A stretch of 63,980 bases of DNA, the filler included, from Fonticula-like sp. SCN 57-25 (lineage: Eukaryota): NCBI GenBank assembly GCA_001724245.1. It is 4 parts of 4 records of this genome, joined end to end, with 100 filler letters (N's around TTAATTAATTAA, not from the genome) between each part and the next. Parts side by side here need not be neighbours in the genome. Positions count along the whole stretch, not along the records: positions 16,196 to 32,179 come from MEDX01000130.1; 3 more parts are not named here. One strand, written 5' to 3'. Positions 9,908-59,357 of the stretch are shown in pieces. Each line of letters opens with the position of its first letter. Position 1 is the first letter of the stretch. Both the position numbers and the translations under genes were made by a program. The notes below the pieces were generated by a model that was not told where the DNA came from, made no database searches, and was given only the letters and a program-made list of their open reading frames with translations.

Positions 9908-12900
9908 ATGAACGTGCGACGTTTACTATCGTCGCCGCAGACGAAGCGGTTGATACTGCTTGGGCTCGTCTTTGCCGCCTTCATCTTTACCTTTAGCTCG
10001 GACGAATGCGGCCTTTTGGGATCGTGCCCTGCCGGCGCGGCCCAGATCGGCGGCCTGGTGCGCCGCCCTTTGCGCGCATAGCGCCTCATTAACGCCCACT
10101 GTTAACCTTGTTTTTGCGCTGTATAGCGGAGGTCGACGCGGTCCCCGCACGCCGCGTCCGTCCGGCTGACCAATGGCGCGCTGCCGCACCGGTCGCAGCT
10201 GACGATCTGGACCATTCTGCGCGACTTTTCGACGACCGACCCGTTCTCCCATGAAGAGTCTTTTGGGTCGCAGATGGAGTGGCTCGAGGCGCTGCACACA
10301 TTCAACGCCATCAATTCGTGGGTGCGCCTGCCCGACGTGGAGGTCATCCTCTTTGGCAGCGAGACGGCCTGCGCGTTCGTCGCCAGCGTACGGCTTTTGT
10401 AACGAGCGCTGGCCGGCCCTGATTAACCATTTGACTTTTAGTTTGTCGACTCTGCCCGCGTGTCATGCGAGCCAATTCCCTGCGTTAACGAAGAGTATCA
10501 GGTACGTCGCGTATTAAATAACCATGATTCATCCTAATCGACCGACCGCAGACGCCCCAGTATGACTGCCTCTTCGCCAAGGCGGCAATGCTCGCGCAGT
10601 CCGAGTTCCTGATGTACTCCAACAGCGACATGGTCTACTTTGACGACCTCTTGTGGGCAGCGCAGACCGTCGCAAACAGCCACGAGGACTTTCTCCTCGT
10701 CGGCAAGCGTACCGACGTCGACTTTCCCCGCCGCATCGACTTTACCGACCCCGACTGGGTCATGGACCTGCGCAATTTTGTACGTGTTGGCAACTATAAT
10801 GCCCGGCCACTGACTTGATTTCTTTTAGGCCCGCCAGTATGGCAAGCCGCATGGCAAGTACGGCATCGACTACTTTTTGTACCGCACGGCGCTTGCCCGC
10901 AAGATGCCGCCGTTCCTCGTCGGCCGCATTCGTTGGGACAACTGGCTGCTTGCGCAGTACATTGGCGACCAGAACGCCGTTGCGGTGGACACTTCCGAGG
11001 TTGTCTTTGCCGTCCACCTGAACCACATGCGCGCCGGCGGCAGCCACGAGCGCCCCGGCACCGAGTACAACATCAACCTGACCAAGAGCGAGCCCGTTGA
11101 CCCGAAAAAGATTGGCGACGTTGACTCGGCGGACTTTGTGCTTCGGCCGACGAGCCCCGACGAGCCGTACTGCCCCGACTGCCAGTTTGTGCACAATGAG
11201 CAGTCGCTAGATGTGATGCTCTACAAGCACGCGAGCAAGACGACGCGCTCGGTCGTCGTCGCCACGGTGAACGCGGGCTACATTGACTTTGCGATGAACT
11301 GGCAGTGCTCGCTGCGCCGCGTCGGCATCACAAACTACATCTTTCACGCGACGGACCGCATCATCTTTGAGCGCCTGCAGGAGCTCGGGCAGCCTGTCCT
11401 CTACTACGAGTCGGCGACCACGCTCGACTACAAGAATGCGCTCGCGCAGCAGGAGGCGAGCGGCGCCGCGCGCGCGGAAGGCGACCCGCTCGACTATGGC
11501 TCGGTTGCCTACCAGGGCCTCATGAACACGCGCACCGAGCTCATTTACAAGATCCTCCAAAAGGGCTACAATGTGCTGCTCTGCGACGTGGACATTGTCT
11601 TTCTACGCGACCCCTTCCCGTACTTTAACACGTCGCTCGACATCCAGGGCGGCGCCCACAAGCAGACCAAGCTCACGGGCGGCTACGTGTACTTCCGCGC
11701 CACCGACGCCGCGCGCAGCATCTGGGTCAAGGTGCTCCTCCAGCACCGCGAGCTGTTCAAGCAGATCCAGACCATGGAGACGTTCAACCCGCATAGCATG
11801 ACGGAGCAAGAGCTCTTGAACGCGCACCTGCTCAAGGCAAAGCCGGGAGAGGTCGCATGGGGGACAGTCGACGAGCGCGTCATCGCAGACGGAAAGCGGT
11901 ACGAAAAAAGTACTAAATTGACATTTCTGCTTACTTTGCTGCTTGTTTTTTGATAGATTCTTCATTGACCATCTGACGCAAAAGAATGGCGAGTGGCCCG
12001 CTGCCATCCACAACAACTACATTATTGGCGCCGACAACAAGCGCGAGCGCTTCCAAAACACTTCCCTTTGGTTTGTGCGCGACGACCTGTCGTGCCGCCC
12101 CTTCCCCGGCTACCAGCACCCTCCCCCCACCGGCGCCTTTTCGCTCAAGATTGTCGTCCTGGCGTTCAACCGCCCCAAGGCGCTGCTCCGCCTGCTCGAG
12201 TCGCTCACGGCGGCAGACTACCACGGCGACCGCGTGGCGCTCGAAATCTTTGTCGACTTTCCCGACGCCGACAGCGCCAAGGAGGACCCGGACCTCGCGA
12301 TGAACCGCTCAAAGGTCGTGAAAATGTCGGAAATGTTTGTGTGGGCGCACGGGCGCAAGGTTGTCCAGGAGCGCAAGCAGGTATGGAATTAATTGTGACG
12401 TGCGCATGTGATATCTAATGATATATTTTGCAGCATCTGGGCCTGGCGCAGCAGTGGCTCTCGTCGTGGTTCCCAAAGAGCGACTCTGAGCTGTGCATCT
12501 TCCTCGAGGACGACAACATTGTATCGCCGCACTACTACACGTACGCCTTTTATCGTTCTTCTCCTCCTTTTCTGACCCCTTTTTCCTTCTAGTTGGCTCA
12601 AGGCGGCCGCCGGCCACTACTACTTTAACCGCGACAACTATGACCCGCGCATGTTTGGCCTCTCGATGCAGATGCAGCACATGATCCCCGGCCGGTACCC
12701 CACCAAGCCGAGCGAGCTGCTCCCCCCCGGCACGCACTTTTACAAGTACCAGCTGCTGTCCACATGGGGCCCCGTGTTCTTCCCGAACCACTGGGGCGAG
12801 TTCCTCACGTGGTTCGCTGACCGGTCTGCCGACCCGGCCTTTATGCCGCTCTTCTCCAACATGATCACCAACACGTGGTTCCTGCAGCGCGGCGGCGGGC

Positions 12901-16095: not shown

Positions 16096-16195
16096 NNNNN
16101 NNNNNNNNNNNNNNNNNNNNNNNNNNNNNNNNNNNNNNNTTAATTAATTAANNNNNNNNNNNNNNNNNNNNNNNNNNNNNNNNNNNNNNNNNNNN
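16096..16195. other. artificial contig linker N44-TTAATTAATTAA-N44
   Basis: 100-nt spacer with a palindromic six-frame-stop core. Confidence 0.97.
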
Positions 16196-20485: not shown

Positions 20486-21094
20486 TTAACGGTAAGACTT
20501 CTGGAAGCGGGCGCGGGCACCGGGACCGCCGAACTTCTTGGGCTCGCAGCGGCGGGGGTCAGCAACGAGGAGGGTGCGGTCGTAGGCGGTGAAGATGTCC
20601 TTGATCTCCCTCTTCGAGGTCTCATCAACGACTAGACAAGAATTGTCAGTAACGTAAGAATAAATTTCATGCGATGGAGGGCAGCGACAAGAGAAACGGC
20701 AACCGGCGAAACATCACAAATAAAAGAAATCAAATCGATTTGATGTGCGTACACTTCTGGAAGAAAGCGACGAGGGCCTTGGCGATGGCCTGGCGGACGG
20801 CGTACATCTGCGAGGTCTGACCACCACCGGTCACGCGAATGCGGATATCGACACCGCTGAAACGCTCCTTGCCGACAAGGAGGATGGGCTCAGTGACCTT
20901 CTGGCGGAGGATCTCGGGCTGGACGAGATCGAGGGGCCGGCCGTTGACACGGATCATGCCCTTGCCGCGCTTGCAGTGAGCAACCGCGGTCGCGGTTTTC
21001 TGAAAACGACAAGGAAAAGCGGTGAGTCGAGGCACGCACTCAACGCTGCATTAGTGATGCGCACCTTGCGACCGTAAACCTGAACAGCCTCCAT
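20486..21094 (-). CDS. RPS16: 40S ribosomal protein uS9
   Basis: [55 protein letters not shown]. Introns 21000-21064 and 20632-20752; putative 5'UTR intron 21109-21392. Confidence 0.97.
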
Positions 21095-21537
21095 GTTGGG
21101 CAAAGTGCCTAAACACAACAAAACCAAAGGTTAGTCCCGATATATCGATGATGCCCGACACAGAGCACGCAAACACCCCTCCCCGCGCCGCGGATGGCGG
21201 CCACGGCGATGGATGGATGGGATGCAGCCATCCCGCAATCCATCCAGCTCCAAATCCGCCGCAGCCTCCATCCGCATCCGCCAACGCCTCAATCCACCGC
21301 ATCATCCACTCCTCTGCCCGGTCCACGACTGCGAGAGAAGCAGGCGCCGCGCCCTACCCACATATCCCCACTCCCACGACGCCGAGACGTGCCTGCGACT
21401 CGAGCTGAGGTCAAAAGAGAGAGGGTGAGCAATCCAGCAGCGTTCGATCCAAAATCCAACCCCAGATTTTGGGAAATCCGGGGTGGATTCAATTTCATCG
21501 CCCACGCTGTCAGCAAATTCATATTGGACGTTGGCTC

Positions 21538-22470
21538 ATGGCGCGCAGCGGGCGAGGATGCCCCGACTGCGGCGGCGCCCTCGAGTTTTGCTTTCTCAAT
21601 TTGACCGAAGGGCTTGATATATGCACTCAGGTACGTGTTTTATCTCTTAGAGCGCTTTAGGCGCGTTTGGTTTCATAGTCTATGGCGGCGCATTGGCCTA
21701 TCCGTCGTTTTTGCTGACGGGTATGGCGCTTTGCGGCCCGGCGTTCCCAATTTCCCCAGCGATCTGGAATGTGATACTCAAAGTGAGTGCACGCCTGTTT
21801 TGCAGTGATACATATACCTTTACATTCTTTTCATTTTCTTCCTTTCTTTCATGAAAGAGGAGAGGTGAGTAAGATCCGCCAGATCCCCGCCGCTGGTCCT
21901 TGCCCTCGTGGGCTCGACGACTGCCGCGCGTGGCCACCACAGACCACAATAGACACCGAAGCCAAATAGGTTCATTCCCTTTTTCTCTTTTTTTCATTAT
22001 TTTTTCGCTGTGATCTAACTTTTGCCTTGCAGTGCTCGTACCCGTTCGAGAACGACTCGCTCGTCGACCATGTGATCCCCTGCATCGCCGGCGCGGACTT
22101 TTCCCAAATTCTTTCTTCTACGCCTCCCCCCGCTGCTCCGCTCAAGCGCCCGCTTGCCAAGGCGGCGCCCCGGCGGGAACGGCTCGACTCGAGCAGCCAG
22201 GTGTGTTTTACCTTACCCGACATTCCCTCTCTAACCCCCATCAAGCTTGTGCCCTCTGACGAGGTGGCGGCCGTTTGCGTCGGCTCTCCCGTCCCCGGCG
22301 TGTCTGCCCCGCCGTCGTGCGCGGCGTCGCCCTGCTCGACGCCCTTTGACGGCTCGCTCGACGAGACGCTCCAGGACGTCCTCAAGGAACCGCTCGGCGC
22401 GATCGACGACGAGGCCGAGTTTTCGTCTTTTGCGCAGAGTCTTCAGGCGTCCATGTTTGGCCGCGCCTAA
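21538..22470 (+). CDS. small zinc-ribbon-like protein
   Basis: MARSGRGCPDCGG..ICTQ|CSYPF joined over intron 21631-22032, giving two CxxC pairs, then a low-complexity tail. Confidence 0.6.
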
Positions 22471-32179: not shown

Positions 32180-32279
32180 NNNNNNNNNNNNNNNNNNNNN
32201 NNNNNNNNNNNNNNNNNNNNNNNTTAATTAATTAANNNNNNNNNNNNNNNNNNNNNNNNNNNNNNNNNNNNNNNNNNNN
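32180..32279. other. artificial contig linker
   Basis: N44-TTAATTAATTAA-N44. Confidence 0.97.
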
Positions 32280-48245: not shown

Positions 48246-48345
48246 NNNNNNNNNNNNNNNNNNNNNNNNNNNNNNNNNNNNNNNNNNNNTTAATTAATTA
48301 ANNNNNNNNNNNNNNNNNNNNNNNNNNNNNNNNNNNNNNNNNNNN
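48246..48345. other. artificial contig linker
   Basis: N44-TTAATTAATTAA-N44. Confidence 0.97.
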
Positions 48346-48477: not shown

Positions 48478-50664
48478 ATGCCGATGCGGTACAAGCCGCA
48501 TGCTGCTCTATCCAGCGCTGGCAACGCGAGAGATGTTGCGAGCATATCGCTCAACCGCCTTCGGGCAATGATCTTGCGAAGTTTTTCGCTTTCATATGGT
48601 CTGGCGATCACTCTTCTCGTTCTTGCCAACAACTTTGCCGTTTTCGAGGTTGTAACGTTTGCCGTCATCATTGCCTACAGCTTTTATGTGGCATTTTGGT
48701 CGCGTCGCTTGGAGGACGTCAAATTCCACGGACTTGTACTATTGCTTGTATACAAGGCTTCTCTAAGTGCGCTTCTGTTTCGCTGCGGGGCGGCGACTGC
48801 CATCCACATCTACTTTCACCTTGGCAACTTTGTCTTTCCCTTGCTGGGCGCCACGTTCCGTGGCACGCGACTAGCGCTGTCCATGGCCGCCTACATCATT
48901 GTGGAGACTATTGTTCTGTACGGCATTTCTCCGGCTGAGAGCGCGGACCACTTTGGCCTTCTCGATTTGTCACCTGAGCAGTATTTGTTTGTACGCGTGG
49001 TCGTCGAGATCAACCTTACTATCCTGTCGACCGTCTTTGGCATCTCTTTCCACCTGTACGCCTCCAAGGTAATCACCACGCTTGCGGAAATGTCCGAGGT
49101 GCGCCGTCGCTTCATCTCCAACATGAACCACGAGATCCGCACTCCGCTCGTGGGTGTGCTCGGCATGGCCGAGCTGCTTCTCGCCGAGGAGCAGCTGTCG
49201 CCGTCGCTGCGCAGCAAGCTCGAGGTCATTGCGTCGAGCGGCGAGGCGCTGTTGCACCTCGTCAACAACATTTTGGACCTGAGCCGGATCGAGGCGCAGG
49301 CGGTCGTTCTCGAGCACCGCGCCGTCGACGTCGGACAGCTCGTCTCGGGCGTCCTCGGCATGTTTGAGGCGAGCGCGCTCGCAAAGGGCCTCCAGATGAT
49401 TGCCCACTTTGAGCCTGGCATTCCCGGGCAGATCATGACAGACCCGTACAGACTCATGCAGGTGCTCAACAACCTCGTTGGCAACGCCATAAAGTTCACG
49501 GAGCGCGGCCGCGTCACCATGACCGTCGACGTCCTCGACGCGCTCTGGCAGGACGAAGAAGAAGCTTCCGCAGCGCAGGGCGCGCAGCACCACCACCTTC
49601 CACTTCAACAGGGGCCATCGCTCGACGCGGCCACGAGCGCCGTGCCCGGCCAGCGCTACATCTCCTTCAGTGTCAAGGATACGGGTATCGGCGTCGCGCG
49701 CGGCGACGGCATCATCCTCTTCCAGCCGTTCTCGCAGGCCGACACGAGCACGACGCGGCGATACGGCGGGTCCGGCCTCGGCCTCGCGCTCTGCGCCGAC
49801 ATTGCGCGGCTCATGGGCGGCAAGGTCAGACTCGTCCGCGGCGACGCACCGGGCGCCGAGTTCCAATTTGCGCTGCCGATCATTCTGCCGGAAGACGGCG
49901 AAGGGGAGGCCCTGCCGCTCGGGGAGGGCGGCGAACAACTCTTCTTTGGCAGCGAGAGCGCCACCTCTGACTCGCCTCAAATTGGCAGCGCGCGCGGAAG
50001 CAACGTGGGCGACGCCACGTGGCAAAGGAGTGTCGTATCGGACCGCTTCGGCAGCGAGGAGAGCCTCGCCAGCGCTCGGTCGCAGCGCGCCGCCGCCGCC
50101 GCCGCTGGCGCCCACCAACACCACGTGGCCGCCATCAGCAGCAGCGCCGGCTCAGGCGCGTGGCAACGCACATTGAGCGCCTCGGACGCGTCGCCTGCGA
50201 GCGGCCGGCGGTCCACGCGGCTGCAGGCCAAGGCGCAGGCGCAGGCGGGTGCCCACATGGCCCCGTCTGTCAGCGCCCGCGTGCTCGTTGCAGACGACAA
50301 CCCGGTGAATGCGCTCGTGATGCAGCGGCAAATGGAGCGCATCGGCTACTCGTACACGATTGTCGGGTCCGGGGGCGAGGCCGTGGACGCGTACCTGTCG
50401 GACGACGGGCACACGTATGACGTCATCATCCTCGACTTGGACATGCCTGGGATGGACGGGCTGCAGGCGGCGCGCGCCATTCGGCAGGCCGAGATGGATG
50501 GCGGCAGCGGGCGCAGGGTGCCCATCGTCGGACTGTCCGCGGCAGACCCGGACATTGCGACAGAGTGCAGGAGAGCTGGGATGGACGACGCGCTTGTAAA
50601 GCCGCTCAACATGGCGGCGCTCAAGGAGTGCGTAGAGAGGTACCTGAAGCCAAAACGGCTTTGA
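48478..50664 (+). CDS. membrane hybrid histidine kinase (TM region-HisKA-HATPase-REC)
   Basis: MNHEIRTPL, NLVGNAIKFT, DTGIG, FSQADTSTTRRYGGSGLGL, VADDNPVN..DLDMPGMDG..KP. Intronless; start approximate. Confidence 0.93.
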   Translation: MPMRYKPHAALSSAGNARDVASISLNRLRAMILRSFSLSYGLAITLLVLANNFAVFEVVTFAVIIAYSFYVAFWSRRLEDVKFHGLVLLLVYKASLSALLFRCGAATAIHIYFHLGNFVFPLLGATFRGTRLALSMAAYIIVETIVLYGISPAESADHFGLLDLSPEQYLFVRVVVEINLTILSTVFGISFHLYASKVITTLAEMSEVRRRFISNMNHEIRTPLVGVLGMAELLLAEEQLSPSLRSKLEVIASSGEALLHLVNNILDLSRIEAQAVVLEHRAVDVGQLVSGVLGMFEASALAKGLQMIAHFEPGIPGQIMTDPYRLMQVLNNLVGNAIKFTERGRVTMTVDVLDALWQDEEEASAAQGAQHHHLPLQQGPSLDAATSAVPGQRYISFSVKDTGIGVARGDGIILFQPFSQADTSTTRRYGGSGLGLALCADIARLMGGKVRLVRGDAPGAEFQFALPIILPEDGEGEALPLGEGGEQLFFGSESATSDSPQIGSARGSNVGDATWQRSVVSDRFGSEESLASARSQRAAAAAAGAHQHHVAAISSSAGSGAWQRTLSASDASPASGRRSTRLQAKAQAQAGAHMAPSVSARVLVADDNPVNALVMQRQMERIGYSYTIVGSGGEAVDAYLSDDGHTYDVIILDLDMPGMDGLQAARAIRQAEMDGGSGRRVPIVGLSAADPDIATECRRAGMDDALVKPLNMAALKECVERYLKPKRL

Positions 50665-50956
50665 AGGCTTTTGTATATAGCTATTTTACGTGGGTTTTTA
50701 AGAGTATTTTGTAATTTGCACGCATGCAGTCTGCATACATAGTACAATTAAGTGGCAAGAACCGAAACTAGTCGAGGTATTCTCTTTGTTACAATAAAGC
50801 AACGCAAAACTAGTATGATATCTTTCCATTCCATACTGTTCCTGTATAGCCGGTGGGGCATACTTTACGAAGGCATCCCCATTATTCCTTGCCTAACCAT
50901 GATTTGACCAACGACTGGGTCTGATTCCGGGGCAGATTCGATCAGTGTCGGCCCCC

Positions 50957-53547: not shown

Positions 53548-53990
53548 TTATGCTTTCGAGGGGTCCTTTGACCAAGAGACGATGACCTGCTCGTGCTCCC
53601 GCGGAAGCTTTGTGTAGTGCGGGATCTTGTGGATGCCCTTGGTGCCGCTCTTGTTGTACGGGGTGAGACGGACCGTCTTAAAGTACATGTCCTTGCTCTT
53701 CACCGGCTGAGGCGCAGTAGTCGTCTGCCATAACACAGTAAGAAATAATGGGAAAAGGGCGAGTGAACGTACCAGGGCTTTGAGGCCGGGCGCAGTCTGG
53801 GTGATCGCGTCCAGGACGCCGCGCACTTGCGCAAGACGATCGCGAACATTGCGCTTGCGCGTCGGGTTCAGCGACCACGGCACCTTGCTGAAAATACAAA
53901 CAGACATTAGACAATGAGCAGCAATAAGCAGGCGCGCAAAAAGACGCACTGTACGAGACCGCTGAGGGCTGCTACCGTCGACCGAAACAT
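53548..53990 (-). CDS. MRPL31: mitoribosomal large-subunit protein mL60 (yeast MRPL31-like)
   Basis: SGLV.KVPWSLNPTRKRNVRDRL..KDMYF..KGIHKIPHYTK. Two introns. Confidence 0.75.
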
Positions 53991-54134
53991 GATGCCGAGG
54001 ACTAACCACGAGTCGGACGATGATTTGAATCACGGCCACGTGCACTCTTTGATGAATTTACGCGATACCACAGAGTTTTGATATGGCGATTTTACGATAG
54101 AGTTTCCGGATTCTTTTCTCTCCCTTCCACGAGG

Positions 54135-55557
54135 ATGTTGAGCGCGCGTCGTCGGATGGGCGGGCTGGCGTCTGCCGCCATCGCGGCCGGCAGCGCGACC
54201 GTCGTCGCGCCTTCCGCCGCTGGTGCGCTTCGTCAGATGTCCAGCTCGCCGCCGCAGCACGGCGGTAAGGGCTCCCCGCCGGCTGGCGGACGCCCACCAA
54301 AGCGTGCTCAAGACACTGCTCGCTTCCTTCAGAGCCTCGCGGCGGAGGCCGCTGCCGGTGCGGAACCCTCTTCTTCGCCCTCTTTCCATATTTAAAATGT
54401 GCTAACTATGAAGGTACAGCGACGAATAAGCGCATGAATGAGCCGCGCGCGCAGGAGGATCGGTCGCGGGCTGCCAAGGCGCGCCCGACCGAGGACTTTA
54501 CGGGCATGTCTTCCTCGGAGGTGCTTGTGATGATGCTCGAGCGCCGTGCGTTATAAATTTCGCGCTGTGTTTTCCGTTGCTGAACCATTTTTGCGCAGAG
54601 ATCAAGGAGATTGAGGACAGCTTACGCCTTGATCAGCGTGCATTTGCGAATCTTGACCTCGACGAGGAGGCCGATCGGTACCTCGGTGATCACTCGTTCA
54701 CCGTTGATGAGGACCAGGCTTTCACGCTGGCCCGTCTTGCTCAGGCGGACGCGCTTGGCATGAACCTCCGCGAGCGCGCGCGCAGCTCAAAGTCTTATGA
54801 TGGCGAGGGCAACCGCATTGCCGATGACGACGACGACCTCTTCAAGGAGGACGACGGCTCGCTTAACATGGGTGAGGACGACGGCCCGGCGGGCGAGCTG
54901 GCCGACTCGGACGACGAGTCTGGCGTGTCGCACCCCGGCATGCTTGACACTGCCAAGCTGAGCCGCATCGCGCAGTTCCTCGGCAAGAGCGAGGAGGCCG
55001 CCGACTCGGATGACTCGTTCACCGATTCTGCTGTCACCCGGAAGAAGAAGCGCGTCGACCTCAAGAGGCAGTACAAGATTGACATCACGCACAAGGTGCG
55101 CGCTTTTCATTATTTATATTGTGGAAACTGAACGACGACTTGCAGAATCTGGAACTCTTGTCCAACTTTGTCTCGGACACCGGTCGCATCGTCTCGGCCC
55201 GTCAGTCTGGTACGCCCTTCGTTTTATGTTTGGTTTTTACTTCGCGTTTTATCCCCTCTGACTTGTCTGTGCTTTGTAGGCCTCGCGGCGCGTAGCCAGC
55301 GCAAGATCGCGCGCACCATTAAGCGCGCCCGCCACGCCGGCCTTTTGCCGTACCTCGCCAAGCTGCCCGAGTTTGCGCCGTACGAGCACATTGACCACCA
55401 GGGTCTCAAGAACGATGGCGGCGCGGCTGCCTTTGGCAATGTGGCGCGCGATTCGAGCGACTCGGATAGCGACAGCGACAGCGACGACGAGCGCGCCGGC
55501 CGCCCGCACCAGAACGCCGGGCGCAACATGAGCCTCAACGGGAGGCCCGCCCACTAA
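54135..55557 (+). CDS. mitoribosomal small-subunit protein bS18m with long N-terminal extension
   Basis: ITHK|NLELLSNFVSDTGRIVSARQS|GLAARSQRKIARTIKRARHAGLLPY; presequence-like start. Confidence 0.8.
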
Positions 55558-58289: not shown

Positions 58290-59172
58290 TTACTGCAAAG
58301 AGAGAAAGAGTGAGCATTCAAGTAGGAAAGAATTGAGATCAAGCGCACCTTCTTGGCCTTGCCGGTGGTAACCTTGGCCTTCTCGGTACCGCGGACCTTC
58401 TTGGTGCGGTTCTTGCGCTCCTTGCGCTGCTTGCGGGACGTCACCTCGCGCGTGAAGAGACCGATCTGTGATGAGCAGCGTGTTAATGATGGGTTTGCAG
58501 CCGAAATCAATAAAGCGTACGCGGCCGAGGCGGTACTTGGGCTCGAACTTCTTGAGGTCCTCAATGGTGTCGTAGATGAGGCCGAAACCAGTGCTGCGGC
58601 CACCACCGAACTTGCCGGCGAAACCGAAGACGACGACGTTCTCCTTGGGGGCCTTGTAGAGGGCGGCGAGCTTCTCGCGAACCTCATCCTTCGAGAGGTT
58701 GGCCTTGCCGGGGTGGATCACATCAACAACCTAAATTGCAAAAAAACATGCAAAAAAATGAAGAGGCAAAGGAGACGCGAGTGTGAGCAAACCGATCGGG
58801 CGGCACATCGACTCCAAAACGCACAAACTGCTTGCGCTTGAGCAGGCGGTTCGTGATGAACTTACGCGTACGAAGCGTGGCGGTCGCCGAATCAGCCTAC
58901 AAGACAATGGCAAAGCGGATGTCAGCCACAGAACACAGGCATGCGATAGAGCGGGATGCGTCGAGAGGATGCCGCCACCGTGGGCTGCAGACGGCGAGGA
59001 TGGATGCTCCACTTCAGCATCGGGATGACGGATGCGGCATCCACAGTCTATCCCGGCCGAGGCATCATCAAACATCCGCGCGCCCTGCGGCCTCCGGGCA
59101 TCCTCCTCGTTGCATAGCCTAAACCCCGGCCACCCATGCCCAAAACCCAAGCATTGCTGCTGGACGCACCAT
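58290..59172 (-). CDS. RPS24: 40S ribosomal protein eS24
   Basis: [62 protein letters not shown]-only first exon; stop-only last coding exon. Confidence 0.96.
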
Positions 59173-59357
59173 CCTGTCCGTCTGGGATGCGCCTAAGTGA
59201 GAGAGGCCGTCCCAACAGAGGTCACGGCACAAGAAGGATCACAATCTCGATCGCGATCGATCCAAAATTTTCGATCCGGATCGTTTCATTGTACATCACG
59301 GTCCCATCTGCCACTGCGATCCCTCTCTTTACATCGCCGTCGGGGTAACACGCAGGC
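59173..59357. promoter_or_regulatory. RPS24/RPL3 bidirectional promoter
   Basis: 185 nt between divergent ATGs; outward-facing CTCTCT pyrimidine tracts; GATC-rich core containing TCGATCCAAAAT (59257-59268). Confidence 0.7.

Follow-up and report, generated by a model that had tools for sequence, protein, structure and literature searches.

A self-complementary GGATG/CATCC pattern in the first introns of three cytosolic ribosomal-protein genes

The window analysed here (i.e., the whole stretch of DNA) has a length of 63,980 bases and comprises four pieces of about 16 kb, which are separated by N runs at 16096-16195, 32180-32279 and 48246-48345. Its GC content is 46-64%, and the spliceosomal introns of its genes are short, having GTRCGY at the 5' site and CTRAY at the branch site. 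A Pfam scan of 300 of the 313 stop-to-stop open reading frames (ORFs) of at least 90 aa (those up to 61283) identified three cytosolic ribosomal-protein (RP) genes, namely RPS16/uS9, RPS24 and RPL3. Further Pfam-supported genes among the scanned ORFs were two mitochondrial RP genes (53551-54057 and 55132-55554) and at least 22 others. The domain set is fungus-like (e.g., a fusion of PUA_2, ATP-sulfurylase and APS-kinase, mitochondrial L31, and ATG27). The named proteins closest to RPL3 belong to Zoopagomycota, chytrids and Mucoromycota and are 74-76% identical, with metatranscriptome proteins reaching 78%; the organism thus belongs to a poorly sampled lineage.

RPS24 and RPL3 are arranged head to head in the fourth N-separated segment, with start codons approximately 185 bp apart. 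This is a different segment from that of RPS16, which agrees with the first-pass annotation, where the two genes were placed on another contig. The gene models used below are as follows.

21393..21405, minus strand: 3' end of RPS16 exon 1 (5'UTR), 13 bases that, together with an ambiguous 6-mer, are matched by the loose end of record 4 in contig run X1
21109..21392, minus strand: RPS16 intron 1, a 284-nt GC-AG intron in the 5'UTR, from a spliced contig and the sequence
21065-21108, minus strand: RPS16 exon 2, with the ATG at 21094-21092, from spliced-contig joints and reading frame
21000-21064, minus strand: RPS16 intron 2, from joints in runs X1 and X3
20753-20999, minus strand: RPS16 exon 3, from Pfam PF00380 (Ribosomal_S9/S16)
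20632-20752, minus strand: RPS16 intron 3, from joints in runs X1, X3 and X4
20486..21108, minus strand: coding part of RPS16, with exon 4 running to the stop codon at 20488-20486, from reading of the sequence
about 58300-59172, minus strand: RPS24, from Pfam S24e
58897..59169, minus strand: RPS24 intron 1, 273 nt, right after the ATG (ATG/GTGCGT...TAG/GCT), from the sequence and Pfam S24e
from 59358, plus strand: RPL3, from Pfam L3
59361..59610, plus strand: RPL3 intron 1, 250 nt, right after the ATG (ATG/GTACGT...ATAG/TCT), from the sequence and Pfam L3

The naming of the first gene as RPS16 was confirmed by the Ribosomal_S9/S16 domain on exon 3 together with the reading frame. Its exon structure was obtained largely from contig X1 record 4 (390 nt, 0-1 mismatches), which is spliced as 20546-20631 / 20753-20999 / 21065-21110. 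The 11-letter loose end of this record after 21110 is an exact match to 21395-21405; this 11-mer has one match near RPS16, and its other occurrence in the window, at 12194 (minus strand), falls on another segment. The sequence GTGCCT is duplicated at 21105-21110 and 21389-21394, so that the joint of intron 1 slides by 6 nt. The interval 21109-21392 was assigned to intron 1 because it is the sole canonical placement (GC...AG; CAG/GCACGT ... TTTAG/G), and the same spliced record thereby gives exactly the 284-nt intron that had been annotated at first pass. Its location in the 5'UTR was likewise upheld, as the 3' splice site is 14 nt upstream of the ATG and the junction is contained in one spliced contig. 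The absence of all three RPS16 introns from X1 record 4 argues for spliced RNA, with the 5'UTR junction being carried by a single contig of one run (X1), and the labelling of this run as RNA is a guess. The interval 21112-21394 is without cover in all four contig runs, which is expected for spliced RNA and counts as evidence neither way. Runs X2-X4 contain mainly conserved exon pieces; X3 record 15 derives from a relative (26 differences in 247 nt), has the same two coding introns spliced, and ends before the 5'UTR junction.

In RPS16 intron 1 the branch site reads ACTAAC, and intron position 262 is its branch A. Its 5' splice site is GC (CAG/GCACGT), as opposed to GT in the four other introns read (RPS16 introns 2 and 3, RPS24 intron 1 and RPL3 intron 1). 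The first introns of the three RP genes are 250-284 nt in length, compared with 65 and 121 nt for RPS16 introns 2 and 3. A small gene at 21622-22470 (plus strand) is divergent from RPS16 and separated from its exon 1 by at most about 217 bp; its apparent start is ATGCACTCAG/GTACGT, and its product is a protein of low complexity without any Pfam match.

Within RPS16 intron 1, nested inverted repeats had been described at first pass, and all six arms were found in place: GCGGATGG at 21190 with CCATCCGC at 21268, TGGATGGAT at 21210 with ATCCATCCA at 21238, and, on direct reading, GGGATG at 21219-21224 with CATCCC at 21229-21234. The elements of the intron are as follows.

21185..21280 (96 nt), minus strand: core hairpin with GGAUG 5' arm, CAUCC 3' arm and GCUG end loop (predicted fold)
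21299..21306, minus strand: GAUGAUGC, 5' strand of an outer 8-bp helix, intron positions 87-94 (inverted repeat and MFE fold)
21147..21154, minus strand: GCAUCAUC, 3' strand of the outer helix, intron positions 239-246 (inverted repeat and MFE fold)
21352..21375, minus strand (sense): G-quadruplex-type run of four G3+ tracts, intron positions 18-41 (motif search)

The core in sense orientation is predicted to fold at -63.3 kcal/mol, compared with -42.1 +/- 3.6 kcal/mol in dinucleotide shuffles (z -5.92), and 0 of 200 shuffles were as good; for the entire intron z was -2.53, with 3 of 200 shuffles as good. The folding test proposed with the first-pass annotation thus came out in favour of the hairpin. 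The antisense core folds less strongly (z -4.70 versus -5.92 in sense). Furthermore, in a scan of both strands of the window by 100-nt intervals, with the 6,328 folds corrected for GC and G content by regression, the RPS16 hairpin ranked first of 6,328, with a residual of -4.54 sd versus -3.47 for the next. The main hairpin spans intron positions 118-201, and its stem is nearly continuous over about 35-40 bp. The inverted-repeat arms are 19-23 nt long, and the spacers between the words are complementary too. In the predicted ensemble, GGAUG at position 120 pairs in register with CAUCC at 197 (probability 1.00), as does GGAUG at 148 with CAUCC at 174 (0.95). Between the outer helix, at the end of its 3' strand, and the branch A there are 16 nt.

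Two further observations were made in the course of these scans. The second-strongest folding outlier (50061-50280, GC 0.77-0.80, residual -3.47 sd) lies in the coding region of a hybrid histidine kinase, and the densest spot for GGATG/CATCC outside the RP genes (50301-50700, 4 per 300 nt) is in this same hybrid histidine-kinase gene. G-quadruplex-type motifs (four G3+ tracts, loops of 1-7) number only 8 in the window on both strands, and two of these are sense-strand motifs located 18-46 nt into first introns, in RPS16 (21352-21375, minus strand) and RPS24 (59124-59148, minus strand); the RPL3 first intron possesses three G tracts at a position as in RPS16 and RPS24.

The words that build the RPS16 hairpin are shared by the other two cytosolic RP genes. 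Read in sense direction with G for GGATG and C for CATCC, the word order is GGGGGCCCC in RPS16, GGGCCCCCCC in RPS24 and GGGGCCCC in RPL3. Each of the three first introns contains 3-5 copies of GGATG followed by 4-7 copies of CATCC in perfect separation (e.g., three GGAUG and then seven CAUCC in RPS24, and four and then four in RPL3). Together, the three introns hold 27 copies in 807 nt versus 122 in the remaining ~62,900 nt of the window, an enrichment of approximately 17-fold. CATCC (15 observed versus 0.76 expected) and GGATG (12 versus 0.76) are the top two of the 407 5-mers present in these introns, and the top 6-mer is GCATCC (9 observed versus 0.21 expected). With the copy numbers as observed, and if each copy were oriented at random, the perfect separation would have a probability of 1/(126 x 120 x 70), about 1e-6, a figure that is too optimistic as overlapping copies inflate it.

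A cluster score, defined as the smaller of the GGATG count in the 150 nt to the left and the CATCC count in the 150 nt to the right, reached 4 at 21241, 59031 and 59501 only, and was at most 1 at the others of the 6,398 positions tested. The score for the reverse order (a CATCC cluster and then a GGATG cluster) never exceeded 1 across the window, and no word cluster was found at either of the mitochondrial RP genes (53551-54057 and 55132-55554). Within the 64-kb window the motif is therefore clearly rarer outside RP first introns, as the first-pass annotation required. The distribution is that of an RP-regulon cis-element within the window, i.e., a score of 4 at 3/3 cytosolic RP genes and of at most 1 elsewhere.

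The three introns also share a common layout: a G-rich 5' part, GAUGAUGC about 80-100 nt into the intron, the GGAUG array and then the CAUCC array. The 8-mer GATGATGC is common to all three at intron positions 87, 101 and 82 (RPS16, RPS24 and RPL3, respectively), and CATCCATC is likewise common to the three. Beyond such short words, MAFFT finds no alignment between the introns. RPS16 is thus an independent instance of the element and no copy of one repeat, which sustains what had been proposed at first pass. The accompanying statement that both motif and polarity match those in RPS24 and RPL3 holds in part: the words and their order do match, but the reverse complement of GGATG...CATCC is again GGATG...CATCC. 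Either strand therefore shows this polarity, and it does not tell which strand matters. With this, an RP-specific, sequence-defined and self-complementary module in the first introns of 3/3 cytosolic RP genes of the 64-kb window is established. A metagenome scan with RPL3 returned 67 loci with 54-79% protein identity, none of which had more than 4 words per 300 nt; these loci are mostly transcript-sized contigs of ~1.3 kb and are too distant to speak to conservation.

Folding of the other two introns gave a less uniform picture. RPL3 intron 1 is predicted to form a long rod (intron positions 18-190) of -115.2 kcal/mol with z -4.62, versus -2.66 in antisense, and its 150-nt cores have z -3.76 and -3.87. 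Its arms of 38 nt are 76% complementary, spacers between words included. The entire RPS24 intron was no more stable than its shuffles (z -0.01, and +0.43 when exon 1 was included); its central 150 nt has z -2.90, and the antisense of this core is better (-3.85). In MFE and ensemble folds, GGAUG copies are paired in register with CAUCC in all three introns (2/5 in RPS16, 3/3 in RPS24 and 2/4 in RPL3), with probabilities of 0.53-1.00. Transitions between the arms yield G-U pairs more often than A-C mismatches (21 versus 5); base composition alone predicts a ratio of about 3 to 1, so this asymmetry is no proof of selection on RNA and was dropped as evidence.

As a separate observation in RPS24, the segment 59169-59184 (minus strand), which runs across the start codon into base 1 of the 5' splice site and contains GGAUG, can pair at 14/16 positions with the CAUCC-containing segment 58988-59003. 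A helix of these two segments that would mask exon 1 and the 5' splice site was rejected, as it is absent from the MFE fold.

The promoter regions of the RP genes share other short elements, as follows.

21444..21455, plus strand: 12-mer TCGATCCAAAAT, a candidate promoter element upstream of RPS16 exon 1, with another copy at 59257-59268 in the RPS24-RPL3 spacer
21418-21425, minus strand: CCTCTCT(C/T) tract of RPS16
59200-59207, minus strand: CCTCTCT(C/T) tract of RPS24
59321-59328, plus strand: CCTCTCT(C/T) tract of RPL3

The sequence GATCCAAAAT occurs nowhere else in the window than in the 12-mers at 21444-21455 and 59257-59268. In the RPS24-RPL3 spacer, the copy of TCGATCCAAAAT forms the palindrome GATCCAAAATTTTCGATC with the core AAAATTTT, a core that resembles the yeast RRPE element. 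TCGATCCAAAAT is a candidate RP promoter element that is separate from the intron words. In 3/3 RP genes, exon 1 ends approximately 25-45 nt after a CCTCTCT(C/T) pyrimidine tract in sense orientation, which lies at the positions given above and may represent a TOP/TCT-like start region. The fourth-strongest folding outlier of the window (21421-21520, minus strand) is also located here, just upstream of RPS16 exon 1; taken alone it has z -1.74, and its hairpin, AAUCCACCCCGGAUUU...AAAUCUGGGGUUGGAUU, overlaps the shared 12-mer.

Searches against known classes of element did not assign the RPS16 intron to any of them. Rfam (E up to 10) gave nothing at gathering score. Among snoRNAs, the only match was a wrong-strand hit to Pab19 (H/ACA) that scored 18.5 bits (gathering score 55), and this candidate was rejected. 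A box C/D snoRNA was rejected as well: relative to the C-box consensus, GAUGAUGC is without the final A in RPS16 and RPL3, and no CUGA partner was seen by eye. The best match of miRNA type, mir-634, scored 24.2 bits (gathering score 70) and reflects nothing beyond the shape of a hairpin. A MITE or foldback transposon was rejected, given that the three introns share short words only, with no tandem subrepeats and no flanking duplication at 21147-21306 in the window searched. A target hairpin of Rnt1 type was rejected on account of the GCUG end loop of RPS16. TRF finds no array, and a microsatellite origin is thus rejected.

The explanation preferred here, with a probability of roughly 0.4, is tentative: the pattern would be a cis-acting RNA hairpin module that is specific to the first introns of RP pre-mRNAs and acts on splicing or expression. 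After transcription, the GGAUG and CAUCC arrays would zip into a long hairpin that fills the middle of the intron. The fold, probably together with a common factor reading the shared words, would then set the splicing efficiency of RP first introns, with the GC 5' splice site of RPS16 being the weak site in this proposal, and many RP genes could thereby be tuned together at the pre-mRNA stage. The action at the RNA level, the effect on splicing and the common factor are what we infer from the pattern. The strict order of GGATG and then CATCC favours RNA, as no such order would be required of clustered sites that function in both orientations. The complementary spacers, the confinement of clusters to introns and the stronger sense folding of RPS16 and RPL3 point the same way. 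Against this, RPS24 weakens the RNA reading (z -0.01 for the whole intron, with a better antisense core), and a pure structure model does not explain why the same words recur in three unrelated introns. The reading as an RNA module rests on three genes, one species and folding predictions.

A bolder form of this proposal holds that the hairpin would be an RNA "regulon tag" present in the first intron of most RP pre-mRNAs of this deep-branching fungus, with a dedicated trans-acting reader (protein or RNA) that couples splicing of the RP set to growth signals; this form is considered doubtful. If true, the RP regulon would be co-regulated post-transcriptionally by way of an intronic element common to its genes, for which no description in eukaryotes was found in the literature searched. 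Approximately 80 RPs are needed in equal amounts, and lineages vary in how they coordinate them, with most of what is known concerning promoters. A sequence-defined, self-pairing element that several RP genes have in common in their first introns would be a new kind of regulon signature and would give a handle on RP coordination at the splicing step. The finding also gives a view of how RP genes are controlled in a little-known region of the fungal tree, in a lineage without close sequenced relatives.

The same words could instead act as DNA. GGATG(C) would then be the site of an RP-regulon transcription factor, clustered downstream of the start site, and the hairpin would be a by-product of inverted duplication. 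In favour of this reading, telo-box elements are found downstream of the start site in plant RP genes, and the "CT box" of yeast Gcr1 includes CATCC. A 17-fold enrichment of a 5-mer in three unrelated introns is typical of a protein-binding word, and the RPS24/RPL3 spacer of about 185 bp is so short that the introns may have had to take up regulatory sites, and there each cluster is also 190-460 bp upstream of the partner gene. The absence of any special thermodynamic stability in the whole RPS24 intron, with its better-folding antisense core, fits a DNA element too. However, binding that is free of orientation gives no reason for the orientation separation in 3/3 introns, nor for the complementarity of the spacers between sites. 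Each promoter region does contain one GGATGC (about 21557 and 59185), but one copy per ~200-bp promoter is near the background expectation of about 0.4, and the motif that the promoters share is a different one, TCGATCCAAAAT. A DNA-level element is judged rather unlikely, though next in probability to the RNA module.

Alternatively, the pattern may be neutral, i.e., a by-product of inverted duplications or old foldback-type insertions that are tolerated in the long first introns of highly expressed genes. The arms do resemble diverged inverted duplications (74-88% complementary), and no known RNA family in Rfam matches them. Such tolerance does not account for a pattern that is present in 3/3 RP genes and nowhere else in the 64 kb, including at least 22 other Pfam-supported genes. 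Furthermore, the three introns are not alignable copies, TRF shows no tandem arrays, no target-site duplication was seen by eye around 21147-21306, and in 3/3 introns the 5' splice site is followed by the 8-mer GATGATGC after a similar number of nucleotides. A neutral origin is accordingly regarded as improbable, and explanations outside the four considered here receive a slightly smaller share of belief. The weakest of the four, a substrate of RNase III, in which Dicer or Rnt1-like cutting would produce small RNAs or remove unspliced RP pre-mRNA, would suit the long near-continuous stems (~35-40 bp in RPS16, longer in RPL3) and the weak hairpin-type matches to miRNA-precursor models, but these matches are far below gathering scores (e.g., 24.2 bits versus 70) and the end loop is GCUG, not the AGNN tetraloop that caps the stems used by Rnt1, which makes this explanation highly improbable.

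The RNA module can be compared with three kinds of known system. In yeast, autoregulatory RP folds (RPL30, RPS14, RPL18B, RPS22B and RPL7B) are gene-specific and are read by the protein of the gene itself. They resemble the proposed module in that an RNA fold in an RP first intron controls splicing, and differ from it in that their folds are specific to single genes, whereas here one motif extends across three RP genes. One motif common to three different RP genes suggests that they have a reader, or a physical role, in common. Autoregulatory intron or 5' structures of single yeast RP genes are described in the literature (PMC13232506, PMC12311795).

Regulon-wide RP motifs in DNA, such as the plant telo-box and the yeast Rap1/Fhl1 sites, are similar in being short words strongly enriched in the RP genes of one lineage; unlike the intron pattern, they are not known to consist of two opposed self-pairing blocks and are mostly upstream of the start site. 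Fungal lineages differ in their RP cis-elements, according to Gasch et al. (2004; PMC526180). The literature searched yielded no GGATG/CATCC element in RP introns; the figures and datasets of PMC526180 may list lineage-specific RP motifs, which may be relevant to the DNA-level reading.

The third comparison is with the zipper stems of Saccharomyces cerevisiae. There, RP introns such as those of RPS17B, RPL7B and RPL28 carry zipper stems or structured elements that aid splicing with weak signals (PMC12350175, PMC2536676, PMC12311795), and the rule for a zipper stem is that its linkers sum to 42-85 nt, with the stem no fewer than 20 nt away from the branch point (Rangan et al., PMC12350175). Stems of the corresponding structural type are predicted here in RPS16 (the outer helix of 87-94 with 239-246 and the main hairpin of 118-201) and in RPL3 (the rod of 18-190). 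The RPL3 rod obeys the positional rule (linkers 17 + 36 = 53 nt), and in RPS24 the inner helix of the MFE fold obeys it too (about 61 nt). RPS16 was rejected as a zipper stem under this rule: its outer linkers sum to 86 + 16 = 102 nt and those of the main hairpin to 117 + 61 = 178 nt, and the outer helix ends 16 nt from the branch A. A further likeness is that a yeast stem can offset a weak splice signal, and RPS16 here has a GC 5' splice site.

The graph distance from the 5' splice site to the branch A was not shorter in MFE folds than in 300 shuffles of the intron interior, a crude control (RPS16 34 versus 17.3, RPS24 22 versus 23.9 and RPL3 19 versus 20.1); the RPS16 distance was worse than 98.7% of shuffles. 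This result and the departure of RPS16 from the positional rule count against the RNA module. The element is thus like a structured yeast RP intron in a loose sense only. The yeast zipper stems are without common sequence and poorly conserved, whereas here the same words occur in the same order in three introns. Structured RP introns are known in baker's yeast, each with its own sequence, and the shared sequence is what differs here.
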